Source: Candidatus Pacearchaeota archaeon
Lineage (GTDB): Archaea; Nanobdellota; Nanobdellia; Pacearchaeales; GW2011-AR1
Direction: 5' to 3'
Assembly (NCBI GenBank): GCA_018303845.1
Contig: JAGVXH010000004.1
Coordinates: 69,165-133,164 of the forward strand
DNA: 64,000 bases
In this document: positions 23,689 through 39,369 of the stretch, one piece after another
Numbering within the stretch: the stretch's first letter is position 1
Layout of the letters: each line of letters starts with the position of its first letter
Translations under genes and position numbers: made by a program
The notes under the pieces: model-generated
What the model was told of the DNA's origin: nothing
Seen by the model: only the letters and a program-made list of their open reading frames with translations
Database searches by the model: none

Positions 23689-24166
23689 TTTTTTTAAACC
23701 TCCTTTCAGTACTGTTTGTTCAGCCGCCTTCTTCAAGGCCTTGAGGTTTAGCTCAAGTTCAACTTTTCTAACAGTCTGGCAGGTCTTATAACTTAGGGAG
23801 CGTTATAAGTTGTCGTCTCTAGGGTGTCCCTGTATGTACACTGACTAGTCAATGCATTATTGATAAACAATAACGCTAAACAAGAAACTCATTCTCCCTA
23901 TTTAAAGCTTACCCCCGACCTTAGTCCAAACAGCTTCGGAAAACGCCAATTTTTACAGGTTTACTTATAAATCTTTTGTTATTACAGCAAAATACAACAG
24001 AATAGAAGGGAGTTGTCCTTTCCATTTTCTAAAGCAATAAATATATATGGTATAAAATTACCCATATATAAAAAGCATAATATTTATATATCTTGGAGAA
24101 CTAGCCATACATATGAAATACTTAAATTATGAGGATTGCGGCTTATAAAATCTAATCCCTAGTAAA

Positions 24167-24519: not shown

Positions 24520-25002
24520 CTAAACTCCACAAATCCTGAGTCTAACAATCAAACTCTTCCCCCCAGAAACAATTGATCTTTGTGCCCCATTTGATACCCC
24601 AGTGCAATTCCCCTCACTCCATTTCAAAATCCCTTCACCATCTTTAACAAAAAACTCCGCGTTCCAACTATCAACCGAAGCATCGCTTAAAATCATAGAA
24701 CCAACAACATCTTTCAGACTCTGATTCAAATAATCACAAGCAGATATCCCCAAATTACTACAGCTATTTCCCTTAAAGCAACTCTTAAACAAATCCTCAA
24801 ACCTATCATAATCAGGCTCATAAACAATCGCGCACCCAGTTGTCGTCCTCATCACAACATCGAGCATATTAGAAACGCCAACGCTATCTTCACTTCCCTT
24901 ATCGTCTCGAACCGAAATAATCAAAAAAACCATCAACGCCACCATTACCAAGACCACAATCAAAACAAACCCAACAATCTCCTGTTGCCCTTTCCTATCC
25001 AT
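24520..25002 (-). CDS. Archaeal type IV pilin-like protein (class III signal peptide, +1 Gln)
   Basis: The N-terminus MDRKGQQEIVGFVLIVVLVMVALMVFLII combines a KGQ motif with a hydrophobic helix. Confidence 0.6.
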   Translation of the reverse strand: MDRKGQQEIVGFVLIVVLVMVALMVFLIISVRDDKGSEDSVGVSNMLDVVMRTTTGCAIVYEPDYDRFEDLFKSCFKGNSCSNLGISACDYLNQSLKDVVGSMILSDASVDSWNAEFFVKDGEGILKWSEGNCTGVSNGAQRSIVSGGKSLIVRLRICGV

Positions 25003-25020
25003 CTTGGGCCTCCGTCTTCT

Positions 25021-25473
25021 TCATCCCAACAACAATCTTCCCAATCTCGCACTTATCATAAACACTCCCAAATTCTTTAACTCGTTGACAAATAGAAACA
25101 TAAGACGATAATAATTACAATCCGCAGCGGGGCACTTAACAATCGATTCAAATGCTGGATAAACCTTATAAATTTCTAGGGACGCAATCGGCCAAAATCC
25201 ACCCATGGAATTTCCAAAACCTCCACTCAAAATCCGAAGCTTATCCTCATCGACAGTCATAGAATCTCGAGCATTATAACTTAATTCAGTCATGGCAGCA
25301 ATATTAGCTAAAGAAGAAATGGCCTGTTCTCTATTCAATTCCTCCGCCCCACTTTTAACATCCCTAAATGTAATTGCCAAAAAAAACAACCCAACCAAAA
25401 TAAAAAAAAAGAACACACCAATAATCATAAATGCCATCTGTATAATCTTCATTTGCCCCCGACCAGCTACCAT
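25021..25473 (-). CDS. Archaeal type IV pilin-like protein
   Basis: N-terminus MVAGRGQMKIIQMAFMIIGVFFFFILVGLFFL. Confidence 0.55.
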   Translation of the reverse strand: MVAGRGQMKIIQMAFMIIGVFFFFILVGLFFLAITFRDVKSGAEELNREQAISSLANIAAMTELSYNARDSMTVDEDKLRILSGGFGNSMGGFWPIASLEIYKVYPAFESIVKCPAADCNYYRLMFLFVNELKNLGVFMISARLGRLLLG

Positions 25474-25523
25474 TTAGAACCCTCCCGTAAATTTAAATTA
25501 AAAATAGCAAAGTTGCATGGTCT

Positions 25524-25583
25524 CCCCAAACCCCCAAACCCCCAAACCCCCAAACCCCGAGTAAAAAAACAAAGTTTTTTTAC
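25524..25583 (-). repeat. (C5A3)n array (25524-25558) plus 10-bp A/T palindrome enclosing the stop of the 313-aa gene (25561-25583)
   Basis: Plus strand reads ccccaaa(cccccaaa)x3cccc, then GTAAAAAAAC-AAA-GTTTTTTTAC. Confidence 0.85.
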
Positions 25584-26521
25584 CATACCCCGCAAACCTC
25601 CCTATCATTCTTCCTTTTCAAATCATCCCCAAATCCCTTAAGCGAAATCAAATCCTCGCTAGTAGCACTACTAACCATTCCGCCCCAAATAAGTAAGTCC
25701 CCTTTCATATTCGTCCCACAATCCCGAGCATCCATCAAATCAGCCTTTTCACTAAAAACCTCAGCAATCTGCCTAGTCCGATACATTAACCTTTTAACAT
25801 TACAATCATAAACAGCCTTATCACTAACAATCGCCCCATACATCAAACTTCCAACATACCGCAAATCTCCAGACGGCTTAGAAACAACCCCCTCATCATA
25901 AACCGAATCACATCCCTTGGAACACGAACCATAAACAATCGCATCGCAGTCAACTCCACCTCCAAAACAAATCCTTTCACTGCCAGAACTACAATTTTCA
26001 AAAACAATATTTTCAATACCTAGTCCCAAGATTTCATTCTTCACAACATCTGGAGCATTCAAAAAACAATATCTTCCACTCATCAAAAAAATCAAATCAC
26101 TAACTTCATAAGGAAACTCAAACGGCTTAGAAAACACATAATAATCAAAACCCTGGTTGTCCTGTTCGGAAAAGATATACTTATTACGAACCGAACTTTT
26201 TCCTCCAGCCAAATTCCAATCACTTCCAATGCCACTTCGAGTCGCAATAGAAATATCATTTTGCCCAAATTTCCCGTCATCTAAACAAATATTATTCAAT
26301 CGCGTCTCCTGCTGAAAAATAATTTTTCCAAACTTCCCTTCGCCAAATCCAGCATGCATCGGGTCAGTCAAAATAGAAACACTTAGTGCCGCCGCCGTAT
26401 CACTCCCATATCTCAAAGTATCCCCTGTCTGAACCGCCCCCCAAATCGCCAAAGCAAGAATAGTCCCACCAGCAAGAATAGCAAAAATCCAAACAAAATC
26501 AAACTGCCCTCTTTTCATCAA
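25580..26521 (-). CDS. Archaeal type IV pilin-like protein (large, 313 aa)
   Basis: N-terminus MMKRGQFDFVWIFAILAGGTILALAIWG, followed by a Cys-containing globular domain. Confidence 0.55.
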   Translation of the reverse strand: MMKRGQFDFVWIFAILAGGTILALAIWGAVQTGDTLRYGSDTAAALSVSILTDPMHAGFGEGKFGKIIFQQETRLNNICLDDGKFGQNDISIATRSGIGSDWNLAGGKSSVRNKYIFSEQDNQGFDYYVFSKPFEFPYEVSDLIFLMSGRYCFLNAPDVVKNEILGLGIENIVFENCSSGSERICFGGGVDCDAIVYGSCSKGCDSVYDEGVVSKPSGDLRYVGSLMYGAIVSDKAVYDCNVKRLMYRTRQIAEVFSEKADLMDARDCGTNMKGDLLIWGGMVSSATSEDLISLKGFGDDLKRKNDREVCGVW

Positions 26522-26549
26522 AACTCAAAGCCATAACAAATTTATAAAA

Positions 26550-27041
26550 CTACTCAATCCAAACAAGCCTATCATAAAACCCCTTCCTAATCTTCAGTCC
26601 AGCATCAACATCAACACAATAAGGGTTCTTTGTTCTAGTAATCTTCGTCACATTAATCCTATCAATATTCTTCCATTGCATCCCCTCAGCTTTTTCAGGA
26701 GGAATCAAAAAAGTATTTGCATCATAAACATCATAGTTCCTAATTGCATCATAATCCGCCCCAGTGTTAGTTATCCTCGCAGACAAATTAGCAAAACAAA
26801 TTCTCGTAATATCTCCAGGCAAACTAACTTCAAAATCCCGGTCGCTCTCTTGTCCCCGAACAGCATCATTAACAGCCTTCTGCAAATCCTCATAAAATAT
26901 TCCAATACTAGCACCCTCACCTAAATCAACAAAACTCTTAACTGCAATAAAAGCAATTACAACAAAAACAATAATTAAAAAAATAGCAAATATCATTCCA
27001 AAAGACATCCCTACCGCCTCCTGTCCTTTCTTGCTCACCAT
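26550..27041 (-). CDS. Archaeal type IV pilin-like protein
   Basis: N-terminus MVSKKGQEAVGMSFGMIFAIFLIIVFVVIAFIAV. Confidence 0.6.
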   Translation of the reverse strand: MVSKKGQEAVGMSFGMIFAIFLIIVFVVIAFIAVKSFVDLGEGASIGIFYEDLQKAVNDAVRGQESDRDFEVSLPGDITRICFANLSARITNTGADYDAIRNYDVYDANTFLIPPEKAEGMQWKNIDRINVTKITRTKNPYCVDVDAGLKIRKGFYDRLVWIE

Positions 27042-27060
27042 AAAAAATAAAGCCTCTTAC

Positions 27061-27072
27061 ATTTTATAAAAC
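27061..27072 (-). promoter_or_regulatory. TATA-like box for the four-gene pilin-like unit
   Basis: attttataaaac lies about 25 nt upstream of the ATG at 27041. Confidence 0.45.
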
Positions 27073-27148
27073 CTTCACTTAGCATTCTGCCTCTAAAACG
27101 AAGCCTTTCCAACAAAGTTGAGCCTTTCCACCTCACGTGAGCTTTGCG

Positions 27149-27177
27149 CGGAAAATTTCCTTACAAGAAATTTTCCG
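27149..27177 (-). terminator. 11-bp perfect hairpin with the stop codon of the 727-aa gene in its loop
   Basis: CGGAAAATTTC-cttacaa-GAAATTTTCCG; the tta at 27161-27163 is the stop codon. Confidence 0.5.
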
Positions 27178-29344
27178 TCGGCCTAATAATCATTGAACAT
27201 CCAGCCTCTTCATTCAAAAATTCATCCCGACATTTAATATAATAAGTATTCTTATTACTCCATTCCGCAACATGAACAGTCGTGTTCCCATAAGGCATCT
27301 CGGTCCCTTCAACAAAACTAAAGTCACAGTCATCTAAAGAATAACTACATTCACTATCCCGAATGGTTACAATCTTAAGCATACCACCTTCTTCATAAGC
27401 TCTAGCAATAACTGGTGCATCCGTATCAATATCAACCTCAAACTTTACAACATCCTTAACCAAATTCCCGCCTTCATCAACACACTTCACATAATAATTA
27501 TGCGTTCCTTCTACCAAGTCCAATCTCTGCGTGTGAATCCCATCTTCTTTATTCGTATCAAAGAACTGGATATAACCTTTGTCATCACTAGACCATTCAC
27601 AAACAGCCAGCCCATTATTACAGCCAAAATAAGTCTCAACGTAAAGCTCAATCGGAGCAGGACTAACTCCTCCAAACACCGTTCCATTAGGTTTCATATT
27701 CTTCAAAACAAGACCAGTGCTTCCCCTCAAACTAAACTCAAAACTCTGTGTCATCTCATTCCTGTCCTTCTCTTCCTTCCCTGGTTGATCCTTGCATCTC
27801 ACAAAATAACTAGCCCCGTCTCTCGGAATTCCAGTAAGCGTTCCCTTGCAAGCAAACAACTGCGCCGCATTAGCCTGATTGTAATTAGCGGCACAACTCA
27901 TAGAATTCTCCATTAAATCATAATCCTGATTTTGAAAACTCCACTTACAACTCGCAGGTTCATTCACATAAAATATAACTTCACTCTTGTCAATATTTTC
28001 AGCAACACAACCACCATTTGTAATCGAAGTAGCTTCAACTTTCGGAGGCGTCGTGTCAGGACTCGGGTCAACACAAAACTTTACAGCATATTCAGCCTCG
28101 TTAGTATTCCCATTCTTATCTTGGCATCTCAAATAAAACATCATATCCTTTCCATTCGTCAAAACAAAACCACTTCCTTGCAACTCACTAGCACCTGGCA
28201 AACTAAACGACTCACTATGGTTATAAGAATACAAATTACTCCCACCAAAATAAGCACTCATCTCATCATATGTCGTAGTATGGTTAAAATCAATCTTACA
28301 CTGTGCCGGCTCGTCAACGGTTATCCCAAATTCCAACGGACTAAATGCTTTCAAACAACCGTCTTTTGAAGCCACATTAACAATCTCAAATCCAGGCCCA
28401 GGCGGACTAGTCTTAACATTCTTGTAGCTATGTCCCTTCGTAAGTTCATCATAGTTCGGCTTAATAATAGGAGGATTAACATCCCGTGGATTAACATAGA
28501 CACATTTCTCTTCAATGGTTCCTTCGTTTACAATCTCACAACTTTGACCTAGCGATTTACATCTGTATTCAGAACAAGGAAGCGTCGCGTCGTTACAAGC
28601 CTCACAATTATCCCCACCAGTCGGAGCCTGCCACGGCATACAATTAAAAGTCACAATCTTTGTCTCACTAGTCTTATACATCATAACAAAAACTAGTGCC
28701 CCAATACCAAGTCCAGCCAAAGCAGGATTCGCTCCAAGCCAAGAAAGCTGTCCACCCGAAGCAAATATACCACCAGCTTCCGAACCAGCACCACTCATAT
28801 ACGTACTCAATATTTTATATGTTCCAAGTCCAGCAGCTAAACTCGTCCCTAATGCCTTTGAATTTCCCTCGCTCATTCCAAACATATTTCCAAGCATCGT
28901 CCCAGCAATATATGCAATCACCGCCCATTGCACACCAGAAGCAAGAGCACTAGCCCCACTTCCAGGAGTCATTTTAAATAAACCAGAAGCATAAGAATCA
29001 GGATGAGCACCAATCTCTCCCGTATATTCAAACATGCCCTTCGCCCCCAATCCACTACCGGTAGTTGGAGTATTAAGTCCAAAATTCGATTTACCTATCC
29101 AACTATCATAATCAGAAGAAGTATCTTTCATGATTTCCCATATCCCCTCCGAATTCACAATTTTAGTCGGCTCCCCCTCAACCATTAACAAATCTCCAGG
29201 TACACCATTTATAGCAGTCCCTTCATCAAGAAAAACAGCCCCACTAGCCACCCCCATCATAAAACAAATCCCAACAAATCCAAAAACCAACAACCAAACC
29301 TGCAACCCCGCCATTCCTTTCTTCCCAAAATCACCTACTCTCAT
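27161..29344 (-). CDS. Giant surface protein, C-terminal-half type: signal anchor, glycine-zipper membrane segment, Cys-rich module and four Ig-like repeats
   Basis: It is homologous to residues of about 600-1273 of the 1273-aa protein (DSWIGKSNFGLNTP vs ESWIAKLSIFATP; CMPWQAPTGGDNCEACND vs CKPWQAPVGGNDCEECND). Four repeats share the pattern C(K/E/S)(I/W/Y)..., Y(Y/F)(L/V/I)(R/K)C.D..GN. Confidence 0.6.
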   Translation of the reverse strand: MRVGDFGKKGMAGLQVWLLVFGFVGICFMMGVASGAVFLDEGTAINGVPGDLLMVEGEPTKIVNSEGIWEIMKDTSSDYDSWIGKSNFGLNTPTTGSGLGAKGMFEYTGEIGAHPDSYASGLFKMTPGSGASALASGVQWAVIAYIAGTMLGNMFGMSEGNSKALGTSLAAGLGTYKILSTYMSGAGSEAGGIFASGGQLSWLGANPALAGLGIGALVFVMMYKTSETKIVTFNCMPWQAPTGGDNCEACNDATLPCSEYRCKSLGQSCEIVNEGTIEEKCVYVNPRDVNPPIIKPNYDELTKGHSYKNVKTSPPGPGFEIVNVASKDGCLKAFSPLEFGITVDEPAQCKIDFNHTTTYDEMSAYFGGSNLYSYNHSESFSLPGASELQGSGFVLTNGKDMMFYLRCQDKNGNTNEAEYAVKFCVDPSPDTTPPKVEATSITNGGCVAENIDKSEVIFYVNEPASCKWSFQNQDYDLMENSMSCAANYNQANAAQLFACKGTLTGIPRDGASYFVRCKDQPGKEEKDRNEMTQSFEFSLRGSTGLVLKNMKPNGTVFGGVSPAPIELYVETYFGCNNGLAVCEWSSDDKGYIQFFDTNKEDGIHTQRLDLVEGTHNYYVKCVDEGGNLVKDVVKFEVDIDTDAPVIARAYEEGGMLKIVTIRDSECSYSLDDCDFSFVEGTEMPYGNTTVHVAEWSNKNTYYIKCRDEFLNEEAGCSMIIRPTENFL

Positions 29345-29694
29345 ATTAAATCCCCCTTCCCCAACTCGTTTTTTAATTTCCTAAAAACTTTTTTTAAGGA
29401 CGGCAACTCCCTAACTGCTTCCGCGTAAAGCCTCTGGCTATTGGTTAGGCTATAAGCATGAACGAGAAAATGCCGGTTATCGACCAGCCCCTTCCAATTA
29501 ATTTCCTTATTTTTTAATTTTGTCTCTTTAGATATTTTAGCGGCGTTCTCCCCTATCTCTTCAAATCTCTTACTGACAGCATCGACCAAAAGAGAATTCT
29601 TCCTAAAGTCATCTAAGCTCACTCCACTCAGGTACTTTTCAATAAGAAGAATAGACTTCAATATATTATCAACATAAATCAAATCTCTTTTCAT
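29341..29694 (-). CDS. HEPN domain protein (DUF86-type toxin of the HEPN-MNT pair)
   Basis: The R-x4-H motif is present in LVDNRHFLVHAY. It has ATGA overlaps with both neighbours. Confidence 0.75.
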   Translation of the reverse strand: MKRDLIYVDNILKSILLIEKYLSGVSLDDFRKNSLLVDAVSKRFEEIGENAAKISKETKLKNKEINWKGLVDNRHFLVHAYSLTNSQRLYAEAVRELPSLKKVFRKLKNELGKGDLI

Positions 29695-29981
29695 ATTATT
29701 CTCACCTCTTCGTCTAAAACCTGTTTTCTAATCAAAGGATGGATGCAACCATATTCTACCAAATCAACCTTTCTTTTCAAATACCCCTCAATCATCCCTT
29801 TGATCCCAACTAATTCACTCAAGCTCAAATCACTATCTACCTCAATTAAAATATCTACATCACTTCCACGCCTCTCCGCGCTCTTGGAATAACTTCCAAA
29901 TAAGCCAATTTTCTTTACCCCAGATTTCTCCAACATTTTCTGTTTACTACGAATTATCTCAATTATGTTTTTTCTATTCAT
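29691..29981 (-). CDS. Minimal nucleotidyltransferase (MNT antitoxin of the HEPN-MNT pair)
   Basis: The GLFGSYSKSAERRGSDVDILIE pol-beta NTase motif (GS...DxD). Confidence 0.75.
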   Translation of the reverse strand: MNRKNIIEIIRSKQKMLEKSGVKKIGLFGSYSKSAERRGSDVDILIEVDSDLSLSELVGIKGMIEGYLKRKVDLVEYGCIHPLIRKQVLDEEVRII

Positions 29982-31774
29982 TGTAACCTCCTCTTCGCCC
30001 CGTCAACCACCCACTTATATCCATCATCCGTATAAGCCCCGTCATAATTAACAGCTCCACCACAATCTCCAAGAGCAGTACAAACACCATTGGCACTCTC
30101 AGCCCAAGCGTCCTCCATGCATTCAGCCCCCTCAACAATCTTACTTCCTCCAATCAACCCCTTCTCATAAACAACAACACACTTCGCATTCGCCTGCCCA
30201 CAAATCTGCTTAGCACTTCCCTCTTCCCAAAACTTTAAACCAGGAGAAAAATTCGGAACACAAATTCCATCAGGTCGGTTAGTAGTAGTCGTAGGAGCTA
30301 CCTCTTCGGCTTTATCATCCCCTCCAAAAATAGAGTTCCCAGTTATCGGTGCAACAACACTTCCAGTAGGATTCGTAAAAGCAGGAGTATTTGTTGTAGT
30401 AGGATTCGTAAAAGTAGAAGCACTCGCACTAGGATTGGAATAAGTTGCAGAATCACTTTGAGTTGCCCCTCCCAAAACCATCCCTAAAACCGAAGGCATC
30501 CACTTACAATCTCGCCTATCAATATTCAAACAATCATCCTTATCAGTTTGCATAACGCACTCCTGCCACCGATTAACTCGACAAGCCGCAGTCCCAAACT
30601 TTCCACCAGTCGTATCAATTGACCCCTCCAAACAAACCTCATTCCTATAATCCGCACAAGGCTCAACCCGAACTTCCCCATCCGAACAAACTTCCCGATA
30701 ATATCTCGCCCCAGGCGCAATTTCCAAACTACCAGGCCCCCCAACCCCCGAACCACCCATGGAAGCACCGCTTCCAGCGACACACCAAGACTCCCCATTA
30801 ATCCGCTTGTCTCCATCTCTATCAACACATTCAGTCTTCTGACAATAATTGTCGCTCCCAGAAGGTCCCCCGATCAAACCCTCAAACTCCGAGCACCGAG
30901 TTCCAAGCATATAATCACAATTCCCACAATTCATATTACTTCCATCATTTGCCTTACAAACCTCATCACTTTCCAAAACTCGCCCCCTATTCCAACTCTT
31001 CACCTTATCACTTGAATAAACATTTTCCAAATTTCCACAAGAGTCAACCCAAAAAACATCACCCCCAGAACAAGTCGTACTCGTCTGCTTAGCACAAGAA
31101 GTCCCAAGCTCTTCAGCCGAACAAAGATAGTCCTTGTAAAAAGTTTTATCACTACTAATACTAAGATTGGTCTGATTCAAAATTTCAACCTTCTCACTAG
31201 CCCCACATTCTCCCCTTGTCGTAAATTCACAAAGTCTTTCAAACTCTTTCTCATAAACACAAGCCCCTTTGTCTTGTGCCTGAGCCTCAGCAATACAATC
31301 AACCTCATTTGTAACATCAGTCCTATAATCATTTTCAACACCAAACAAACTCGATAATCTCTTACATCTAACTAAAGAAACAAACGCAGCTTGGTCCGCA
31401 ATTACACAACATCCCAACTGACACTGTGGTACCTCATCAGGTTCTCTTGGGTCCCAAGTCCCACCATTATCATTACAAACCCTCTGCGGCGTATTTCCCA
31501 TACAAATTCCTTCACCAGAATCATAACAAGTTCCAAGTCGACAATACGAAGTAGTCTGGCAAGAAGTCGGAGCAGAATTATAACCAGCAGCACAAGCCGA
31601 TTGTTTATCATTAACACACCAAGCCCCGCCAGTAGTTTTCTCGCAACAATAACTTACTTCACTAGTAGCTGCCATCCCAAACCCTATAAGTAAAATAACA
31701 AAGCTGAGCAAGCATCCAAACCCCCAAACCCCCAAACCCCCAAACCCCCATTTATGAAAATTTTCAATTTTCAT
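29978..31774 (-). CDS. Giant surface protein, N-terminal-half type: G-repeat-encoded leader, signal peptide and Cys-rich ectodomain
   Basis: It is homologous to residues of about 70-595 of the 1273-aa protein (VFWVDSCGNLENVYSS vs VYFVDSCGNVGNIYDSS; INGESWCV vs DNGESWCV; VEPCADYRNEVC vs IEPCADYRNQIC; LGDCGGAVNY vs LGDCGGSVNI). Confidence 0.6.
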   Translation of the reverse strand: MKIENFHKWGFGGLGVWGFGCLLSFVILLIGFGMAATSEVSYCCEKTTGGAWCVNDKQSACAAGYNSAPTSCQTTSYCRLGTCYDSGEGICMGNTPQRVCNDNGGTWDPREPDEVPQCQLGCCVIADQAAFVSLVRCKRLSSLFGVENDYRTDVTNEVDCIAEAQAQDKGACVYEKEFERLCEFTTRGECGASEKVEILNQTNLSISSDKTFYKDYLCSAEELGTSCAKQTSTTCSGGDVFWVDSCGNLENVYSSDKVKSWNRGRVLESDEVCKANDGSNMNCGNCDYMLGTRCSEFEGLIGGPSGSDNYCQKTECVDRDGDKRINGESWCVAGSGASMGGSGVGGPGSLEIAPGARYYREVCSDGEVRVEPCADYRNEVCLEGSIDTTGGKFGTAACRVNRWQECVMQTDKDDCLNIDRRDCKWMPSVLGMVLGGATQSDSATYSNPSASASTFTNPTTTNTPAFTNPTGSVVAPITGNSIFGGDDKAEEVAPTTTTNRPDGICVPNFSPGLKFWEEGSAKQICGQANAKCVVVYEKGLIGGSKIVEGAECMEDAWAESANGVCTALGDCGGAVNYDGAYTDDGYKWVVDGAKRRLQ

Positions 31775-31777
31775 AAA
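31716..31777 (-). repeat. (C5A3)4 array (31716-31749) plus 12-bp perfect palindrome (31751-31777) enclosing the TGA/ATG junction
   Basis: TTTATGAAAATT-ttc-AATTTTCATAAA. The array lies inside the 598-aa ORF and encodes WGFGGLGVWGFG. Confidence 0.85.
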
Positions 31778-32520
31778 TCATATCCCGCCGGGAACACTAA
31801 ACTCCGACTCGCAAATTTAAATTTATCACCAAACACTTTATTCTCCAAAACATAAACCGTAGTCCCTTCGCCCCTCTTTGTCTTCTCGATATAATAATCA
31901 GGATAATAAAGCATCATGGCTGAAACATCGCTATCCCCATACTTAGTCTCAAACTGCAAAATAGAAGTCGCAATCATCACAGTTTCATAAGCCGGAGAGT
32001 TAACCTTAACATTAAACCGAGCAAATCTGCTAGTCCCAACCGAAGTCGGAGCATCAATTTCTAGTCGAACAACTCCAGGCTCAATTTCTACATTATAATT
32101 AACCGCGCCACTAACAACTTCATATCCCTGATCCTTCAAAGAATTCAAACTAGCCTCATAACAAGCATCAACCTCTTCCCGAATCAAAACCTCCAGATTC
32201 TCATCAAACACATTCTTCAAAAACGGAACCTGTACAGTACAAGTCTCATAAAAATTATTAGTATAACAAAGATAAGTCAACTCCTCACCCTGATAAGTAT
32301 AGGTGAAATCAGCATCAATAAAACCAGCCTTTCCCTCAAGTTCACTAATCCCATTTTCCATCGCATCGGCAACACAGCCTTCAAATCCCTTTACCCCACT
32401 ACCTTCACTCAAAAATGTCGGTCTAGCCCAAAGAAAAAAAATCAAAATAGCCGAAACTATTAAAATCCCAATCAAAATAAAAATCGTAACCTGCCCCTTT
32501 TTCTCCATCAAATTCTTCAT
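31771..32520 (-). CDS. Archaeal type IV pilin-like protein (paralogue of 36881-37645)
   Basis: MKNLMEKKGQVTIFILIGILIVSAILIFFLW. The C-terminus FKFASRSLVFPAGYDL compares with FKFAVRSCAFAPGI in the paralogue. The ATG at 32520 lies 25 nt downstream of TATA-like atttataaaa (32541-32550). Confidence 0.6.
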   Translation of the reverse strand: MKNLMEKKGQVTIFILIGILIVSAILIFFLWARPTFLSEGSGVKGFEGCVADAMENGISELEGKAGFIDADFTYTYQGEELTYLCYTNNFYETCTVQVPFLKNVFDENLEVLIREEVDACYEASLNSLKDQGYEVVSGAVNYNVEIEPGVVRLEIDAPTSVGTSRFARFNVKVNSPAYETVMIATSILQFETKYGDSDVSAMMLYYPDYYIEKTKRGEGTTVYVLENKVFGDKFKFASRSLVFPAGYDL

Positions 32521-32540
32521 GTCAGTCCAAGCCTTTCCAT

Positions 32541-32550
32541 ATTTATAAAA
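32541..32550 (-). promoter_or_regulatory. Internal TATA-like box between the giant gene and the pilin-like gene
   Basis: Reads TTTTATAAAT on the gene strand, about 25 nt upstream of the ATG at 32520. Confidence 0.4.
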
Positions 32551-32557
32551 TCTCTCA

Positions 32558-35500
32558 TCATATAGCAACTATTTCCGCCAAACATCTGCTCGGCAAATTT
32601 CCATATTTATCTTCACACTGAATAAAATATTTTTTCCCATAATCAACCGAAAACGAAAGTGCATCCCCCTCTCCAATACTAACTCCATCTTCCCAATCAA
32701 ATTTACAGCCAGTAAAAGAATACCGACATTCTCCAGCTCCATTCAAAAGTAAATTCATTCTTCCCTGTTCTTCCCATATCCTAGTAATCGTAATAATAGA
32801 ACTAATTCCCTCTTCCCCTTCCTCTTCCCCTTCCTCTTCCCCCCCTTGCACATTAAAGTCCCCCTGAACAACTCGGAATTCAGTCAAACCACGAGCAACG
32901 TCTCCATTTTCATCGGAACATTCAACATAAATTTTCTTCGCCCCAGTTCCAACATTCAAAGTCTGAACATGTGTCCGCGCATCCCCAGTTTCAAACATTT
33001 CAATCATACTTCCATAACCACTAAACGAATAAGAACAAAAATGATTTACCCCTCCGCCACTAGTCGCAACTTTCAAATCGATAGTCGTAAAATCAGTATT
33101 AATTTCAATGATATTATCTGGTTTAATCTTGTCAATTGAAATCTTCGAACTAGGTTTTACCAAATTAAAAACAAAACTTTGCGCATTCGCATTTCGTTTA
33201 CTCGTATCATTTTCCCAAGGTTGGTCCATACATCTAACATAATAATTATTACTAGAATTCCCGATTGCAAAAACCCCATTGCAAACATATCCCAAAGCAT
33301 TAGACGGCGCACCCAAGGAATCCCCACACACCATATCATTTCCCATTTCGGAATAATCAACATCCCGCAAATCCCATTTACAAGTCGCAAGTTCATTTGT
33401 CACAATCATCACATCTTTACTCGTCACATCAAAACCAACATTTCCTATTCCTTCACTCGCAACAATTTTAGGCGCAGTAACATCTTCACCTTCAATAACA
33501 CAAGTTTTAATCTCATAAATTCCAGGACTCTCCAGCCCATATCTGTCCCGACATTTAACATACAAACTTAAATCTCCAGTCCAATTCGAACCTTGACTTT
33601 GTCCATGACTAGGGTCAGGCAAATTAAAAACAGCAGTATGATTATACAAATAGCTATTCCCACCTAAACTAAAAACCATGTCATCAAAATCTTTCACGGC
33701 AACATCAAACTTACATTGTGCAGGTTCACTTGTAACAATCCCAATCGGCAATGGGGTATAGGCCAGAACACAACCACCCCTATCATTGACAATACTAAAT
33801 CCATTTTCCCCATCCTCATAGTCTCCACCTTCAAAGTCAATCCCAGTCTGTCGATGAATAATCGGAGGCGTCGCATCCCCAGGATTCCCATCTACACAAA
33901 GTTCATCCCCGCTTCCTTCATTAATCAACTCACATCCCGCCCCCAAACTCTCGCATCTATATCTCGAACAAGGCTTCAACGGATCATCATTGCACTCCTC
34001 ACAATCATTCCCTCCAACTGGAGCCTGCCATGGCTTACACTCAAAATCAACTTCAATTGGTGGGCATTTGCTTCTCCCGAAGAATAAAGAAATAACGATT
34101 AAAGCAACTCCAACCCAAAACAGAGGAGTCGCAAGCATTACAGTCATAGTAGGACTTAGCATATAAGCCGCTCCAATCGCCGCTCCACCAAGTCCCATCA
34201 ACATACTACCTCCTTCACTAAGCCCCAAATATTGCCCCAGCATTTGACCAACAACAAATCCAATTCCAGCACCAATCATTGCTCCAGAATAAGGCCCAAT
34301 AACTTTTATGAAACTTTCCGGAAGAATCTTGTCGAAAGGAATAAAATTACGAGCCATTGAAAAAATTGCTCCTTTCATATCTGGGTTAGCAGCTCCAATC
34401 GCTAGACCAAGTCCAGCAACACCAACTCCTATACTAGTGAAATCAAAACTCTTTTCTTCTTCCCCGCCAACCGTAGGCGTAACCGCCCCGCCCCAGACGC
34501 CAGCAGCCGCCAAATACTCTGAATAGTCTTCAACTTCAGCAAACTGTCCAGGAACCGGAGTGGCAAATATAGACAATTTCGCAATCCAACTCTCACTTAA
34601 GCCCGGGGAATTTCGAATAATATAATTCCCAGACCATTCCCCAACAATATTAACCGAACCACCGCAATCCCCAAGTCCTCGACAAAAATCATTCATTTCC
34701 TGTCCAAATGTTTCACTTAAACAATTTTGATTCGCAACATATCTACATCCACCCCATTTCTTCGAAGCTCGAACAACAGTACAAGTCTGACTTGCCATTC
34801 CACAAAGTCTCTCTGCAGTAGTTTGGTATCTAGCATCATTTAAAGCAAAGCCTCCAGGATACTTTGGCAAACAAACATCAAATGTAAACTTGTCAGCAAT
34901 TGCAACTTTTTCAACTCGACAATTCAAAGTCGCACTACACTTGTCAACCATTCGCACTTTCTTGTCACTAGCACAATCACTAGCCGCCAAATTAAGACAA
35001 TTTATTTTATCGGCATTACTAGGATAAAGAGTATAATTCCCACAAAGTTTAGTCCGACTCTCAGTACACGCTTTTTTCTCAGCTTCAGTCCGAACCTCAT
35101 CAGCATCCTCACTATTCAAGTTAATACATTCTCGCCAATTATTCGCAATACAAGCAGCATTGTCAAATTCAACCTTCTTCCCATCAACTTCAAATTCTTT
35201 TGACTGAACACAAATTTGATTTCGATAATCGGCACAGGGCTCTATCTGCACAACTCCTTGAGAACAAACATACTTCCAATGCCGACTCCCAACAACATCG
35301 TTCCCATTCCCAATCGCCCCGTCGTAAACACACCAAGATTCTCCATTATCGTATTTCACCCCATCAAACATACAACTCGTATCCCGACAATAAAAACTTC
35401 CAACCTCAACCTTGAAATTATCCTCACTAGCAGAAGCGCAAATTCCACCAGCGAACCTATTGCAATTCCCACAACTAGGGCTATCCCCATTCCCTTCTCC

Positions 35501-36379
35501 TGCCCCACAAGAATCATTGTACTGAACAACAGAGTCCCAATAGCTCACATCCTCAACCCTAGAAGAATCATAAATATTCCCAACATTCCCGCATGAGTCA
35601 ACAAAATAAACCCCATCTTTCCCATCGACACATTTCGTCTGCTTAGTCATCTTGCAACTTGTATTAAGGGAAGGATTAGTGCAAAGAGATCCTTCAGCGA
35701 AATCTCCCCCGTAAGAAAAACATTCAGCTTCACTCACGAATTTACATTCTCCTTCCCTGATAACACAAGCCCCCTCTTTTTGTTCAGCAGCTAAAAACAG
35801 ACAAGCCCCCTCATCAACCCCAGTTCTCCAATCAACAATATCATCGTCCCCCATTGCGAAAACCAAACTATCAACCTCACATTGTCCTTCTGTCTCAAAA
35901 ATAGTTTTACTCCCCAAAACACAACATCCAAGTCGAGCCCCGGGCAAATTACAATTCGGATCCTTAACCCATTTTGCAGGACAAGCAAATTTCAAAACAT
36001 TCTTATCATAAGTTCCACTCTTGTCATCATAACAACAACCTTTCTCACAAAATGAAGTCGCAGCACAAAGCGCACCCTCGGCAAATGGCGAATCACTTAT
36101 GCAATTCTCCGGACTCGTAGTCCCACAAACTTGCCCTTCATTACTAGCAAAACAACATCCAGCACCTTCACTATTCATTGAAATAGGGTAATTCTTCCAT
36201 GTCTGATTTTCAGTCAATTTTCCACCCCCCATTTTATCAAGAAAATCCTTAATGGTCATCTTCTCTTTTTCTGCCCCAGAAACTAAACTAACTTCTTCAA
36301 ACCCAACAAAATAACAAAACGAAAAAAGCATCCCAATCATCAAAATCATCTCAAATCCAGCAGTAATTTTCCTATTCAT
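32558..36379 (-). CDS. Giant (1273 aa) Cys-rich surface protein: signal peptide, Cys-rich ectodomain, glycine-zipper membrane segment, Cys-rich module and four Ig-like repeats
   Basis: Uninterrupted ORF colinear with the 598-aa and 727-aa proteins. The central segment GAMIGAGIGFVVGQMLGQYLGLSEGGSMLMGLGGAAIGAAYML is followed by LFWVGVALIVISLFF. Confidence 0.65.
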   Translation of the reverse strand: MNRKITAGFEMILMIGMLFSFCYFVGFEEVSLVSGAEKEKMTIKDFLDKMGGGKLTENQTWKNYPISMNSEGAGCCFASNEGQVCGTTSPENCISDSPFAEGALCAATSFCEKGCCYDDKSGTYDKNVLKFACPAKWVKDPNCNLPGARLGCCVLGSKTIFETEGQCEVDSLVFAMGDDDIVDWRTGVDEGACLFLAAEQKEGACVIREGECKFVSEAECFSYGGDFAEGSLCTNPSLNTSCKMTKQTKCVDGKDGVYFVDSCGNVGNIYDSSRVEDVSYWDSVVQYNDSCGAGEGNGDSPSCGNCNRFAGGICASASEDNFKVEVGSFYCRDTSCMFDGVKYDNGESWCVYDGAIGNGNDVVGSRHWKYVCSQGVVQIEPCADYRNQICVQSKEFEVDGKKVEFDNAACIANNWRECINLNSEDADEVRTEAEKKACTESRTKLCGNYTLYPSNADKINCLNLAASDCASDKKVRMVDKCSATLNCRVEKVAIADKFTFDVCLPKYPGGFALNDARYQTTAERLCGMASQTCTVVRASKKWGGCRYVANQNCLSETFGQEMNDFCRGLGDCGGSVNIVGEWSGNYIIRNSPGLSESWIAKLSIFATPVPGQFAEVEDYSEYLAAAGVWGGAVTPTVGGEEEKSFDFTSIGVGVAGLGLAIGAANPDMKGAIFSMARNFIPFDKILPESFIKVIGPYSGAMIGAGIGFVVGQMLGQYLGLSEGGSMLMGLGGAAIGAAYMLSPTMTVMLATPLFWVGVALIVISLFFGRSKCPPIEVDFECKPWQAPVGGNDCEECNDDPLKPCSRYRCESLGAGCELINEGSGDELCVDGNPGDATPPIIHRQTGIDFEGGDYEDGENGFSIVNDRGGCVLAYTPLPIGIVTSEPAQCKFDVAVKDFDDMVFSLGGNSYLYNHTAVFNLPDPSHGQSQGSNWTGDLSLYVKCRDRYGLESPGIYEIKTCVIEGEDVTAPKIVASEGIGNVGFDVTSKDVMIVTNELATCKWDLRDVDYSEMGNDMVCGDSLGAPSNALGYVCNGVFAIGNSSNNYYVRCMDQPWENDTSKRNANAQSFVFNLVKPSSKISIDKIKPDNIIEINTDFTTIDLKVATSGGGVNHFCSYSFSGYGSMIEMFETGDARTHVQTLNVGTGAKKIYVECSDENGDVARGLTEFRVVQGDFNVQGGEEEGEEEGEEGISSIITITRIWEEQGRMNLLLNGAGECRYSFTGCKFDWEDGVSIGEGDALSFSVDYGKKYFIQCEDKYGNLPSRCLAEIVAI

Positions 36380-36735
36380 TTCCTTTCCTCTAAATATTTA
36401 ATATAAGCCCAAATCTTCTTACTAGCTTCATCAAGCTTCTTCATAACCAAATCAAATTTCATTTCATCAACATACTCAATATCCGAAGAAATATAAAATT
36501 GTGTTTCTAACTCCCGAACACTTCCAAGAGAAATTCTCAAAAACTGAACAAATTCTTTCACCGAATCTCTTCCACATCCTTCCGCAATATTAGAAGGAAT
36601 GCTAACCGCAGCTCTTCTCATTTGAGAGGTAATCCCATAAAGCTCATCCTTAGGAAATCCCTTAGTAATAATATAAACTTCTTTAGCAACTTCTCTTCCG
36701 ATATTCCAAATCTGAAGTTTCCTATAATCTCTCAT
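36376..36735 (-). CDS. Four-helix-bundle protein of the 23S rRNA-intervening-sequence / Avd family
   Basis: YKKLxVW-like N-terminus (YRKLQIWNIGREVAKEVY), SQMRRAAVSIPSNIAEGCGR and GSVRELETQ motifs. ATGA overlaps at both ends. Confidence 0.75.
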   Translation of the reverse strand: MRDYRKLQIWNIGREVAKEVYIITKGFPKDELYGITSQMRRAAVSIPSNIAEGCGRDSVKEFVQFLRISLGSVRELETQFYISSDIEYVDEMKFDLVMKKLDEASKKIWAYIKYLEERK

Positions 36736-36884
36736 ACATATCTCCTAGCATAGTTGCTCAACCCGGGCGAAGCCCTAACCAAACCCCCAAACCCCCAAAC
36801 CCCCAAACCTCCGCGAAGCAAGGACCTAACCAAACCCCCAAACCCCCAAACCCCCAAACCCCCATGAAAATTTCTAATTTTCAT
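36732..36884 (-). CDS. 50-aa leader ORF encoded by two G-repeat arrays (MKIRNFHGGLGVWGFGGLVRSLLRGGLGVWGFGGLVRASPGLSNYARRYV)
   Basis: Hand-translated. Its ATG overlaps the stop of the 254-aa gene (tcat at 36881-36884), and its TGA overlaps the Avd-family ATG (tcat at 36732-36735). Its N-terminus MKI(R/E)NFH matches the start of the 598-aa protein. Confidence 0.4.
   Translation of the reverse strand: MKIRNFHGGLGVWGFGGLVRSLLRGGLGVWGFGGLVRASPGLSNYARRYV
36776..36884 (-). repeat. Two (C5A3)n arrays (36779-36809 and 36831-36863), each preceded by a GCGAAGC-type mini-hairpin, plus a 9-bp palindrome (36864-36884)
   Basis: Sequence reads ctaaccaaa(cccccaaa)x3cc...gcgaagcaaggacctaaccaaa(cccccaaa)x3ccccc, then ATGAAAATT-tct-AATTTTCAT. 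Confidence 0.85.
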
Positions 36885-37645
36885 ATCCCAGGTGCAAAAG
36901 CACAACTCCTCACAGCAAATTTAAATTCATCTCCACTTCGTCGGTCAATTACTCGATACATCTTCGAATCCCGATAATCAACCCGCCTAATATCATACTC
37001 CGGATAAAGCAACATATATCCATTATACTCAAAATAACAAAATTGCGACTCACTATTAACAATTTCTCGAGTCACCCGAACCAAATTATAAATAGGCGAA
37101 ACAACCTCTAAACTAAAATCATTAAAACTCTTAGCTCCAGACTCACTAGAAATTTCAATATCCTTCTTCAAAGAAACCTTGACATAGCCAGGCAATAAAT
37201 CAACAGAATATTCAGTCGCCCCACCTTTAACATCATAGCCTCTATTCTCAAAATCTTCTCTCATCGAATTAAAACAACTCTGTACGCCAACACTAGTGTC
37301 CCTTTCAATTTCACTCTCAATTTGCAACTCAAGCATCGGATGAATATTATAACATCCCTGATAAAAATCCGCCTGATAACACAAATAGCCCCACTCATTA
37401 CCCTGATATGAAATAGCCTGCGAAGGCAAAATCTCCCCTCCATTCTCAAGCATCTTGTCAACAGAATCCCTAACAACATCTCCAACACATCCAGCAATAA
37501 AATCCCTAGGCCCCAAATCGCTTGGTCGAACGGCCTCTCCTCCACGGTTCATCAAATAAATCAAGCCCAAAATAACAACAACAATCATAATCGCAACTAT
37601 GATAAATATCGTTACCTGCGCTCTTTTCCCATTTTTCTCTCCCAT
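36881..37645 (-). CDS. Archaeal type IV pilin-like protein (paralogue of 31771-32520)
   Basis: N-terminus MGEKNGKRAQVTIFIIVAIMIVVVILGLIYL. Confidence 0.6.
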   Translation of the reverse strand: MGEKNGKRAQVTIFIIVAIMIVVVILGLIYLMNRGGEAVRPSDLGPRDFIAGCVGDVVRDSVDKMLENGGEILPSQAISYQGNEWGYLCYQADFYQGCYNIHPMLELQIESEIERDTSVGVQSCFNSMREDFENRGYDVKGGATEYSVDLLPGYVKVSLKKDIEISSESGAKSFNDFSLEVVSPIYNLVRVTREIVNSESQFCYFEYNGYMLLYPEYDIRRVDYRDSKMYRVIDRRSGDEFKFAVRSCAFAPGI

Positions 37646-38379
37646 TAATTCAACTCCACGTACAAATAATAAGCCGTACTTCCAGCAAATCCAGAATCCC
37701 CATTTTCTGGCACAATCATTTGAAAATCATAATCAGCTCCATCATAACCAGCAATACCATCTTCAATTTTCGCGGCAAAAACAATATTCGCAGAATCATA
37801 CAAAATAATCTCCTCAAAACTCGAACTCTGACTAGCATTATTCACATAACTATTCACGGCAAAACAGTCAGTCGCGCCGATAGGAACTCCACTCACAACA
37901 TAAGTTCCAGCGTTAGTTCCATTAAACGTCGAAGAAATATTGTCCTCTCCGATATGATCCATCGCAACATCTTCGGCAATAATTTCAGCGTCACTAGCAC
38001 ATTCAATATTCCCCCAGTCGACAGCCCCAGAAACTCGAGTCGCATAAACCTGTCCCCCAATTGAAGAAATAGACCAGTCATAAATCGACGAATCACTAGA
38101 ATCATCTAATGTAAACCTCCCATCAACCCAACCAACAAAAGCCTTCCAATGCGGATTCTGAACAATGGTGGAGACATTCAATTTCGAAATTAGTCCACCA
38201 GAAACATTAACATTACTGCCCGTATTAGGACCACCCCAAGTTTCATTTAAGGTAACATTCAAGGAATCCGGACCAACAGGAGCAGCCGAAACAATACTAA
38301 TAAATCCAAACAAAATAATCAAAACCGCCAATCTTCCAACTTCCAACTTCTGATTTCTAATCTCTAACTCAACATCCAT
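37645..38379 (-). CDS. Secreted beta-rich protein, function unknown
   Basis: Signal anchor LAVLIILFGFISIVSAAPVG, with several N-x-S/T sequons. The TAATG junction overlaps the next gene. Confidence 0.5.
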   Translation of the reverse strand: MDVELEIRNQKLEVGRLAVLIILFGFISIVSAAPVGPDSLNVTLNETWGGPNTGSNVNVSGGLISKLNVSTIVQNPHWKAFVGWVDGRFTLDDSSDSSIYDWSISSIGGQVYATRVSGAVDWGNIECASDAEIIAEDVAMDHIGEDNISSTFNGTNAGTYVVSGVPIGATDCFAVNSYVNNASQSSSFEEIILYDSANIVFAAKIEDGIAGYDGADYDFQMIVPENGDSGFAGSTAYYLYVELN

Positions 38380-38549
38380 AATGTCACCCCCGCTTTCTTA
38401 ATCCTTTCAACCTTCTCAGAAATAAGTAGCTCCATCAAATGTTTCTCAGCAGTATTCCAAGAAACCGAAAACTTCTCCGCCACTTCGCTGCTAGTAACAA
38501 TCCTCTCCGTCTTAATCAACTTCAAAAGCTCCGCATCAGCAATCTTCAT
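38364..38549 (-). CDS. Small winged-helix DNA-binding protein (61 aa)
   Basis: MKIADAELLKLIKTERIVTSSEVAEKFSVSWNTAEKHLMELLISEKVERIKKAGVTLWMLS. The track ORF's N-terminal extension is A/T-rich promoter sequence. Confidence 0.5.
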   Translation of the reverse strand: MKIADAELLKLIKTERIVTSSEVAEKFSVSWNTAEKHLMELLISEKVERIKKAGVTLWMLS

Positions 38550-38793
38550 AATAATATTCAACATAATATACTTATAAATATTACTATTAAAATAACTATT
38601 AATATTAAAACTAATAATAATAAGAATATACATATGAATAAATAAAATATATAACATAATAATATACCTATGAATATAACTATGAATAATATTATGAATA
38701 CTCATAAATAGCAAGTAAAAAATTAATTTAATTCTCTAGTATAACAGATAAATTCACCAAGTTTTCTAGTAAGAATAAAAATTATTTTTATTT

Positions 38794-39369
38794 TCAATCA
38801 CACCAGTTATATCCGGCAGCCGTATATGCGCCAGTAGGAGCCGTAGTTGTAGTGCTCCATCTTCCCGAGCAACAATTGCCAGCAGGCGGGTCTGCGCAAC
38901 CACCACTCCAACACGAAGTATACCCGCTTCCGCAAGCCCCTACCCAACAAAGTGCTTGACCAGATGACCAACAAGTTGGTGCCACATAGCAAGCCCCACA
39001 ATCCCCAGAACAACTACTACAAGTCTCCCCATTATTACAACTACCATCACCACAATATGGTGCCACATAGCAAGCTGCCACATAGCAAGCCCCACAATCT
39101 CCAGAACAACTACTGCAAGTCTCCCCATTATTACAACTACCATCTCCGCAATATAGTGCAACAACGGTAGAGCCACAATTTTTCCCAGTTATCTTCTGAC
39201 AAAAAGCATCATTGACGACGGTATTCCCGTTCAATTCAATTTCGCCTCCACTATGCCCCATAACATTCGGATTATTCCCGCCATAACTATAAACAAAGCT
39301 AAAACTAAACAGAACAACAATTAAACCAACCCAAATAAAATCCCTCTTCCCAAATTCAATCTTCACCAT
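38794..39369 (-). CDS. Cys-rich secreted protein with internal 81-nt tandem repeat
   Basis: N-terminal anchor GKRDFIWVGLIVVLFSF and a duplicated YCGDGSCNNGETCSSCSGDCGACYVA module. A TATA-like ctatttaaatac lies 27 nt upstream. Confidence 0.6.
   Translation of the reverse strand: MVKIEFGKRDFIWVGLIVVLFSFSFVYSYGGNNPNVMGHSGGEIELNGNTVVNDAFCQKITGKNCGSTVVALYCGDGSCNNGETCSSCSGDCGACYVAACYVAPYCGDGSCNNGETCSSCSGDCGACYVAPTCWSSGQALCWVGACGSGYTSCWSGGCADPPAGNCCSGRWSTTTTAPTGAYTAAGYNWCD

Follow-up and report, generated by a model that had tools for sequence, protein, structure and literature searches.

A conserved, probably type IV filament-related surface locus of Pacearchaeota/Woesearchaeota-type archaea encodes pilin-like proteins and a new family of giant cysteine-rich proteins

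The stretch analyzed here, referred to as the window, is a 64,000-nucleotide piece of contig JAGVXH010000004.1 (positions 69,165 to 133,164) from assembly GCA_018303845.1 of a Candidatus Pacearchaeota archaeon. Its positions 24520 to 39369 hold a surface locus in which all credible genes lie on the minus strand; all locus coordinates below refer to that strand. From upstream to downstream, the genes encode a 191-amino-acid (aa) protein, a small winged helix-turn-helix (HTH) protein, a 244-aa protein, the pilin-like p254, a 23S_rRNA_IVP-family protein, the giant protein G1, the pilin-like p265, the first half of a second giant (G2a), MNT, HepT, the second half of that giant (G2b), and the pilin-like p163, p313, p150 and p160. 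An earlier sequence-only reading had described the locus as co-directional, which is borne out, and most of its genes as joined by ATGA or TAATG overlaps, but such overlaps occur at only six of the 12 junctions (five ATGA, one TAATG). One more junction is an overlap of 11 nucleotides (nt) that hangs on a doubtful TTG start, and the remaining five are gaps of 18 to 145 nt. Three small genes inside the locus, those for HepT, MNT and the 23S_rRNA_IVP-family protein, had been overlooked. As developed below, the locus is probably a type IV filament-related surface system, and its family of giant proteins and the fold of their head are new.

Six products of the locus share one kind of N-terminus. 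The 254-aa p254 (36881-37645), the pilin-like partner of G1, starts with the leader MGEKNGKRA followed by QVTIFIIVAIMIVVVILGLIYL. The partner of giant 2, p265 (31771-32568), has ..MEKKG before QVTIFILIGILIVSAILIFFLW, and its translation probably starts at one of two ATG codons, 32520 or 32508. Downstream of the giants lie p163 (26550-27041), a small pilin-like protein with MVSKKG before QEAVGMSFGMIFAIFLIIVFVVIAFIAV; p313 (25580-26521), which contains 10 Cys and has MMKRG before QFDFVWIFAILAGGTILALAIWGAV; p150 (25021-25473), small again, with MVAGRG before QMKIIQMAFMIIGVFFFFILVGLFF; and p160 (24520-25002), a small protein with 6 Cys in which MDRKG precedes QQEIVGFVLIVVLVMVALMVFLIISV. All six carry a basic leader of 4-9 residues, then [KR][GA]Q and about 20 hydrophobic residues, and the six motifs listed by the sequence-only reading (KGQ, RGQ, RGQ, KGQ, KGQ and RAQ) are all present. 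The features of a class III leader, namely a charged leader, a Gly or Ala at -1 and a hydrophobic stretch, are found in six of six and are kept in homologues from 76 genomes. The +1 Gln of EppA-type (Epd) pilins is likewise found in all six. EppA of Methanococcus maripaludis needs Gln at +1 for processing (PMC4390842).

The motif is concentrated in the locus. A FlaFind-like scan of the six frames of the whole window returned 10 fitting N-termini, seven of them in the locus, and the +1 Gln occurred in the six pilin-like proteins only and in none of the three outside the locus. Across species, +1 Gln was present in 45 of 50 motif-bearing members of the p254 family, and in four other families in 51 of 61, 27 of 42, 28 of 29 and 27 of 29 (64% to 97%). 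When the 4,276 open reading frames (ORFs) of related loci (1.4 Mb) were searched, 224 of 245 motif occurrences belonged to the six families and the rest were mostly N-termini of giants. The hydrophobic helix is near-invariant inside each family, for example GQQEMVGFVLIVVLV in p160 and GQM[KQ]IQQMAFMI in p150. The -2 position is looser in homologues than K/R, with KHGQ, KLGQ and KNGQ among the variants, and a +5 Glu is not conserved. Profile-profile comparison between the pilin-like families found likeness restricted to the N-terminal 30-80 residues, at probabilities of 55-92%. The conserved G/A-Gln with its helix, together with likeness confined to the N-terminus, therefore points to the behavior of a class III signal and pilin alpha1 helix, unlike that of Sec signals. 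p254 and p265 are paralogues with 31% identity (E 1e-37; hhalign probability 100%). The p254 family comprises 262 database clusters, and not one of them carries a functional name or a Pfam domain.

Each of the two pilin-like proteins of about 250 aa is followed by a giant gene, p254 by G1 and p265 by giant 2 (G2), so that the two paralogous modules proposed earlier stand. G1 is the intact giant (1273 aa, 69 Cys; 32558-36379). It consists of a helix at residues 9-27, a head at about 64-590, membrane helices at about 645-765, a Cys knot at about 770-835 and four immunoglobulin (Ig)-like domains at about 840-1273. The 598-aa G2a (29978-31774) contains 42 Cys, a Sec-like N-terminal signal and no further membrane segment, and it aligns to G1 residues 64-583 with 29% identity (E 2e-47). 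The 727-aa G2b (27161-29344) has an N-terminal transmembrane helix at residues 16-34 and glycine-rich helices at about 130-221, and it aligns to G1 residues 704-1266 with 33% identity (E 2e-81). Because the halves align to the head and to the membrane/Ig part, respectively, G2 is one split paralogue of G1: G2a is its Cys-rich head and G2b its membrane, Cys-knot and four-Ig half. The locus had been read as holding three giants, each combining a Cys-rich ectodomain, a glycine-zipper-like membrane segment and four repeats, but the 1273-aa protein alone has all of these. The same kind of split is seen in many species, whereas others have a fused giant 2 of 1300-1440 aa. Insertion of the HepT/MNT pair was considered as the cause of the split and ruled out, since the split also occurs without the pair in many genomes and, in L003, with another inserted gene. 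The Cys-richness of the giants noted before is clear from the counts, with 5.4% Cys in the 1273-aa, 7.0% in the 598-aa and 3.3% in the 727-aa protein as compared with 1.1% in the housekeeping proteins of the window.

The N-terminal helix of G1 (36299-36379) is itself conserved as FE..LM..S.FAF.Y and is class-III-like. Distant G1 members have KKAQ or KRAQ before this helix, for example KKAQA[GS]FE (P0112, P0115, P0116, P0076; L049, L059), and certain split C-terminal halves of giants start with the same type of motif. Judged by these N-termini, the giants may themselves be prepilin-like. The G2 heads have ordinary Sec-type signals. No characterized family matched the giants in Pfam, NCBIfam, the database relatives, Foldseek or a PDB profile search, and across all locus proteins nothing in Pfam and NCBIfam passed threshold except the passenger genes described below.

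To examine the architecture of G1, AlphaFold2 was run separately on residues 1-640 and 600-1273 with a 47-sequence alignment. The head half was predicted as beta-rich with a mean pLDDT (predicted local distance difference test) of 81.8 and 261 residues at 90 or above. The head domain proper (residues 64-590; 34610-36190) is disulfide-rich, with about 35 Cys invariant in the 47 sequences. Foldseek gave no match for it (best E 0.9 in PDB and 0.024 in BFVD), and the giant-family sequence profile searched against PDB gave nothing significant, the best being Syncytin-1 at E 0.26. As both searches came back empty, the head is taken as a fold without a known relative. The membrane and stalk half was predicted with a mean pLDDT of 79.9. 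Its glycine-zipper and hydrophobic helices (residues 645-765; 34085-34447) include GAMIGAGIGFVVGQMLGQYLG and the strongly hydrophobic VMLATPLFWVGVALIVISL. The helices at 688-717, 722-741 and 745-765 have pLDDT values of about 80-89, and the helix at 648-664 about 50. The zipper (residues 693-718) is conserved as AIGAGIGM and scores 19.9 bits against PF13488 (cut-off 25) and 16.8 bits against PF13441 (cut-off 28.9). VMLATPLFWVGVALIVISL follows right after the zipper with a Kyte-Doolittle (KD) hydropathy of 2.36, and the helices are modeled as one compact helical bundle. In the model, the glycine-zipper helices look like the giant's own membrane anchor.

The remaining part of G1 (32561-34072) is formed by the Cys knot and four tandem beta-sandwich domains of the Ig/FN3 type. 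The knot is small and has seven invariant Cys. The four consecutive beta-sandwiches, each with a conserved Cys pair, were predicted at pLDDT values mostly of 80-95 over residues 840-1273; Pfam gave sub-threshold Big_13 matches only. Foldseek searches of the stalk against PDB returned generic tandem Ig/FN3 matches, the best at E 4e-12 and 277 at E ≤ 1e-3. Both head and stalk are Cys-rich and should be extracellular, and an even number of membrane passes is therefore needed between them. In the 727-aa half of giant 2, an N-in first helix is followed by three more.

The locus is widely conserved. When the window proteins were mapped onto 79 related loci, p254 was found directly upstream of G1 in 57, and the other pilin-like genes were present in 65 (p265), 47 (p163), 44 (p313), 41 (p150) and 32 (p160). 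In 76 species-level DPANN genomes the genes follow the order p254-G1-p265-G2-p163-p313-p150-p160, each time next to the PCNA and primase genes and usually next to the S-layer gene. The recurrent map runs from z445, z617 and primase on one strand to PCNA, an optional HTH gene and the eight locus genes on the other, then a reversed HTH gene, the S-layer gene, y204 and y246 in the direction of the locus, and a reversed exosortase-like gene. Exceptions are a third module in certain genomes (L001) and a p254-G1 pair standing alone among tRNA synthetase genes (L036). Identity to the window has a median of 40-56% for the locus proteins, compared with 65% (PCNA), 60% (primase) and 42% (S-layer protein). 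A full HMMER scan found 3,702 representatives of the giant family at 50% identity, of which 1,916 reached E ≤ 1e-30, and the family forms more than 1,000 clusters at 90% identity. Members that have a source name are called hypothetical protein, except one glycine zipper family protein. The named organisms with members are Pacearchaeota, Nanoarchaeota or unclassified archaea, and at least 486 stretches in GTDB species representatives encode relatives. This cell-surface operon belongs to the core genome and is characteristic of DPANN archaea of the Pacearchaeota/Woesearchaeota type. A viral origin was ruled out, as IMG/VR viral contigs hold no relatives and the chromosomal position is fixed. Full-text literature searches found no description of this architecture, in keeping with the sequence-only reading, which had recognized no described system.

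Some database labels sit oddly with this distribution. A 569-kb contig that was submitted under the name 'Methanococcoides sp. SA1' carries homologues of G1 and p254 (P0069, P0210); it may be a DPANN genome co-assembled with, or mislabeled as, a methanogen; the label could also be a hint of the host. Loci labeled 'Pseudomonadota' (L055) and 'Methanosarcinales' (L020) apparently reflect similar labeling or binning problems.

Several genes of the locus vary between species. The 191-aa protein (38794-39369; 12% Cys) is a variable accessory with homologues in three of the 79 related loci. Its gene contains a tandem duplication of 96 nt (38980-39163; 1.9 copies, 93% identical) that doubles the peptide YCGDGSCNNGETCSSCSGDCGACYVA. 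The 244-aa protein (37645-38379), secreted or anchored and carrying 7 N-glycosylation sequons, is another variable accessory, with a homologue in four. The small winged-HTH gene at the operon head (38364-38714) has weak matches to HTH_DeoR and DUF7342; its real ORF is probably about 60 aa with the start MKIADAELL..., and homologues of 60-160 aa lie between PCNA and p254 in 26 loci. The four-helix-bundle gene of the 23S_rRNA_IVP family (36376-36735; Pfam PF05635, E 7e-38) occupies the p254-G1 junction here; as a variable passenger, it occurs in five loci at varying junctions. MNT (29691-29981; PF01909, E 6.5e-14) and HepT (29341-29694; PF01934, E 3e-16) lie between G2a and G2b. As in type VII toxin-antitoxin pairs, a HepT-like RNase domain stands beside a nucleotidyltransferase domain, and the two genes overlap by 4 nt. 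Because few loci carry them (MNT in 10, HepT in seven) and they do so at differing junctions, the pair is a passenger outside the system proper. In various species, the operon junctions hold toxin-antitoxin genes of the HEPN-type plus nucleotidyltransferase kind (HepT/MNT or HEPN+NTase; e.g. L036:11732-12852) and 23S_rRNA_IVP genes, and they seem to be a preferred landing site of small passenger genes.

The locus also contains four arrays of GGGGGTTT, of about 4.4 copies each (25524-25558, 31716-31750, 36779-36811 and 36830-36864), all on the coding-sense strand. The pattern has 12 matches where 0.04 are expected. In one case the array falls within the 5' end of the 598-aa ORF and codes for WGFGGLGVWGFG; since its period is 8 nt, a change in copy number could shift the reading frame. 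The arrays could form G-quadruplexes or serve as a phase-variation switch. A role as conserved G-quadruplex repeats was dropped, as the G5T3 arrays do not occur in the 79 related loci and are specific to this genome.

Upstream of the locus lie PCNA (39410-40132) and a primase gene (40746-42341), both assigned by Pfam, and beyond them two plus-strand genes (42955-46147) for surface proteins of 617 and 445 aa (z617 and z445). Each of the latter has a signal peptide, a Cys-rich membrane-proximal part, a C-terminal transmembrane anchor and no Pfam family, and they adjoin the primase gene in 16-21 related genomes. With these extra surface proteins beside primase, the whole 25-kb neighborhood is rich in surface proteins. 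Downstream, a convergent HVO_A0114-type HTH gene assigned by Pfam (24167-24517) is followed by a minus-strand S-layer gene (21415-23736; PF05124), whose product has no Cys, no C-terminal membrane anchor and no obvious PGF-CTERM-type tail. In 24 related loci, as in the window, the S-layer gene comes after the locus. It is accompanied by y204 and y246 (19942-21293, minus strand), which encode single-pass proteins, and by a plus-strand gene (19393-19941) for a 182-aa multi-transmembrane exosortase-like protein with a weak Exosortase_EpsH match (E 7e-5) and an ACVAG motif. The exosortase-like gene is syntenic with the S-layer gene, y204 and y246 in 7-12 related genomes. Elsewhere the window, with a GC content of about 37%, encodes form III RuBisCO, FtsZ, ribosomal proteins and tRNA synthetases, in agreement with a DPANN origin. 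ARAGORN called two plus-strand tRNA-Ser genes (2603-2683 and 2816-2896), of which the first alone was confirmed at the Rfam gathering threshold. A 184-aa minus-strand ORF (2593-3147) is probably spurious because the tRNA-Ser calls overlap it.

Then, what does this operon build? It is probably a cell-surface attachment or envelope structure. The reading that we favor, to which we give about an even chance, is an EppA-type pilin-like scaffold that is assembled in trans and displays two giant adhesin-like proteins. An EppA-like peptidase encoded elsewhere in the genome would cleave the leaders at the [G/A]-Gln bond, and the same outside machinery might also polymerize the pilin-like proteins. The hydrophobic N-terminal helices would stay in the mature proteins and pack into a short scaffold resembling a pseudopilus or a tip complex. 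This scaffold would hold or position the two paralogous giants of about 1,200 aa, G1 and G2, which the bundle of glycine-zipper and hydrophobic helices would anchor in the cell's own membrane. Most likely, the heads and Ig stalks would adhere to another cell or surface or make contact with it. Enrichment of Pacearchaeota in large size fractions has been read as strong host attachment (bioRxiv 10.1101/2020.05.14.094862).

A number of observations weigh against this scaffold. As the sequence-only reading had stated, Pfam scans of essentially all window ORFs of at least 140 aa found no T2SSE/FlaI ATPase, T2SSF/FlaJ platform or A24 peptidase, and no GxGD multi-transmembrane candidate was found among the window ORFs without a Pfam match. 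The 79 related loci (4,276 ORFs, 1.4 Mb flanks) likewise yielded no gene for a peptidase, ATPase or platform, and a search for pilus ATPase and A24 peptidase motifs in these ORFs found none. The earlier assignment to a DUF361/EppA-type pattern holds for the +1 Gln but not for the family models: no pilin or class III hidden Markov model (HMM), including Class_IIIsignal/DUF361, matches the six window proteins (Pfam E ≤ 0.1, NCBIfam E ≤ 1), and 89 family members gave no pilin or class III Pfam match at E ≤ 0.05, only scattered chance matches. PDB sequence-profile searches with the p163, p313 and p254 families found nothing significant, and p313 had no PDB relative. The best matches were PilE1 (E 0.23) and cresol dehydrogenase (E 0.14), the former, a non-significant match of the p163-family profile to the alpha1 helix of a type IV pilin, being the sole PDB hint. 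The locus has no obvious small major pilin, and the giants' own membrane helices fit display on an extended pilus poorly. Moreover, the three confident helices of G1 would place head and stalk on opposite sides of the membrane, unless the low-confidence fourth helix spans it too.

The absence of machinery from the window is not the same as its absence from the genome. Two conserved CpaF/TadC loci have been described in cluster-2 DPANN including Pacearchaeota (Hamm et al., PMC11291902), with CpaF/TadC/PilA loci in Pacearchaeota (PMC11291902), and system 1 of the type IV filament superfamily (TFF), the Epd/EppA type, has been placed in DPANN by a 2026 preprint (bioRxiv 10.64898/2026.04.22.720090). 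Machinery encoded in trans is plausible for this reason. Against it, He et al. stated that DPANN lack components of the type IV pilus (bioRxiv 10.1101/2020.05.14.094862). Candidates from the locus surroundings were rejected as pilus machinery. The one Walker-A protein in the related loci is SMC/Rad50-like and was ruled out as a pilus ATPase, and z617, z445, y204, y246, o303 and o389 were ruled out as divergent machinery, as they are secreted, single-pass or soluble.

The alternative that survives best keeps the proteins at the envelope. The pilin-like proteins and giants would form a fixed, membrane-anchored complex that bridges the space below the S-layer and anchors or organizes that layer, like the bindosome or the SlaB stalk of Sulfolobales, and would be neither an adhesin nor an extendable pilus. 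The recurrence of the S-layer gene after the locus, where it travels with y204, y246 and the exosortase-like gene, suggests such a link, as does an S-layer protein that has neither a C-terminal membrane anchor nor Cys while the giants bring their own membrane helices and a four-Ig stalk. The locus proteins are conserved much like the S-layer protein, unlike a hypervariable host-specificity factor, and the locus is fixed in the core genome beside PCNA and primase. However, this adjacency may be inherited synteny of very small genomes, in which PCNA and primase are equally syntenic and clearly unrelated in function. The oppositely oriented regulator gene at 24167-24517 parts the S-layer gene from the locus, and the p254-G1 pair of L036 has no S-layer gene in the 21.7 kb covered. 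We regard the envelope complex as possible but unlikely.

Rather improbable, in our view, is a more speculative version of a fixed complex. The locus would encode a hitherto unrecognized surface organelle specific to Pacearchaeota/Woesearchaeota that is not a filament. Its pilin-like helices would bundle the two giants, seen as disulfide-rich membrane proteins that are partly pilin-like themselves, into a fixed complex for host contact. Such an organelle might need only the peptidase and no dedicated pilus ATPase, and where symbiont and host meet, the glycine-zipper helices might assemble into an oligomeric channel or bridge.

The sequence-only reading had envisaged a pilus-tethered, membrane-inserting apparatus. 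In this account, the glycine-zipper segments of the giants would insert into, or fuse with, the host membrane to make a bridge or pore for the uptake of host material. The giants do have Gly/Ala-rich hydrophobic segments between head and stalk. Segments of this kind are reminiscent of viral fusion peptides and of pore formers with glycine zippers. The break in the split paralogue parts the head from the hydrophobic portion, and Pacearchaeota are metabolically minimal and apparently strongly host-attached. The zipper helices are, however, followed by the strongly hydrophobic helix (KD 2.36) and modeled in a compact bundle, which is expected of a resident membrane anchor. Foldseek matches of both halves in PDB and of the head in BFVD included no class I, II or III fusogen fold, no HAP2 or fusexin, no viral fusion protein and no pore-forming toxin. 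The Syncytin-1 sequence match is non-significant and lies in the Ig region, and viral contigs hold no relatives of the locus. The membrane-inserting idea thus finds no support, and we hold it to be very doubtful. Finally, it is highly improbable that these are ordinary Sec-secreted or signal-anchored proteins that act independently, with [G/A]-Gln a lineage habit and no prepilin-peptidase processing: the silent pilin HMMs, the peptidase and ATPase genes not found nearby and the variable -2 residue of homologues would fit, but the conserved G/A-Gln precedes the hydrophobic stretch as class III sites do, with no conserved AxA-type site after it, Sec signal sequences are not conserved whereas these helices are near-invariant within families across species, and 6-8 such genes cluster per operon in 76 genomes with the motif almost absent from flanking genes.

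Few DPANN archaea are as abundant, or as reduced in their metabolism, as Pacearchaeota and Woesearchaeota, and we know of no cultured member. The operon occupies about a quarter of the window and encodes the largest extracytoplasmic proteins of the lineage, none of which is functionally named in the databases searched. If it does encode an attachment or envelope apparatus, it would offer electron cryotomography, metaproteomics and studies of host range a concrete molecular target, could serve as a lineage marker and would widen the known uses of type-IV-pilin-like modules in Archaea.

Several known systems resemble parts of the locus. A role in host contact has been proposed for the SPEARE proteins of Nanohaloarchaeota and for archaeal fusexins, which are large, extracellular and made by symbiotic archaea. 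The giants are comparable on these points, but domains of the protease, restriction-endonuclease or class II fusogen type are absent from them, and the structure searches gave no match. The four C-terminal beta-sandwiches are like those of tandem Ig/FN3 adhesins and S-layer stalks (NCAM, PTP-delta, the grappling-hook protein GhpA, EA1), with E values down to 4e-12. This is a likeness of generic fold only, at 7-13% identity, and the Cys pair per domain and the Cys knot are peculiar to the giant family. GAMIGAGIGFVVGQMLGQYLG has the GxxxG-repeat pattern of glycine-zipper proteins (Gly-zipper_Omp/YMGG; SlyB/Pcp type), and one homologue carries the NCBI name 'glycine zipper family protein'. Whereas the known glycine-zipper families are small bacterial outer-membrane lipoproteins, the zipper here is one short segment within an archaeal protein of 1,273 aa, and its Pfam scores are below cut-off.

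The Sulfolobus bindosome consists of class III signal proteins assembled near the S-layer. It shares with the present locus pilin-like signals on non-filament surface proteins that may be envelope-close, and an S-layer gene is adjacent here. In contrast to the bindosome, the locus encodes neither substrate-binding-protein domains nor an ATPase or membrane proteins of the BasEF kind, and its cargo would be giant Cys-rich proteins. In bacteria, minor-pilin tip complexes carry a large adhesin (FimU-PilVWX with PilY1) or comprise GspHIJK, and modular pilins are known. Here, too, four different small pilin-like proteins are encoded with very large non-filament proteins, and G1 begins, like modular pilins, with a conserved pilin-like helix. 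A PilY-like adhesin has been described in subsystem 4A/B of archaeal TFF (bioRxiv 10.64898/2026.04.22.720090). Unlike these complexes, the locus proteins have no sequence or fold likeness to PilY1 or to any pilin, the giants contain internal membrane helices, and the +5 Glu is not conserved. No PilY1-like beta-propeller or vWA adhesin domain was found by Pfam, PDB profile or Foldseek, and the system is archaeal, without an outer membrane or a secretin.

In the way it would work, the locus comes closest to such bacterial tip complexes and to the Epd pili and EppA of M. maripaludis (TFF system 1). The Epd system differs from the locus in several ways. Here no pilin or class III match is found in Pfam or NCBIfam, EppA, the ATPase and both platform genes are absent from the locus and its surroundings, and there is no small Tad-like major pilin. 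The pairing of pilin-like genes with giants of about 1,200 aa is, in turn, a feature that the Epd cluster lacks. What the two share is a basic leader ending in [G/A], a Gln at +1 and a hydrophobic helix, and a cluster in which several different pilin-like genes stand together, in a system type reported from DPANN.

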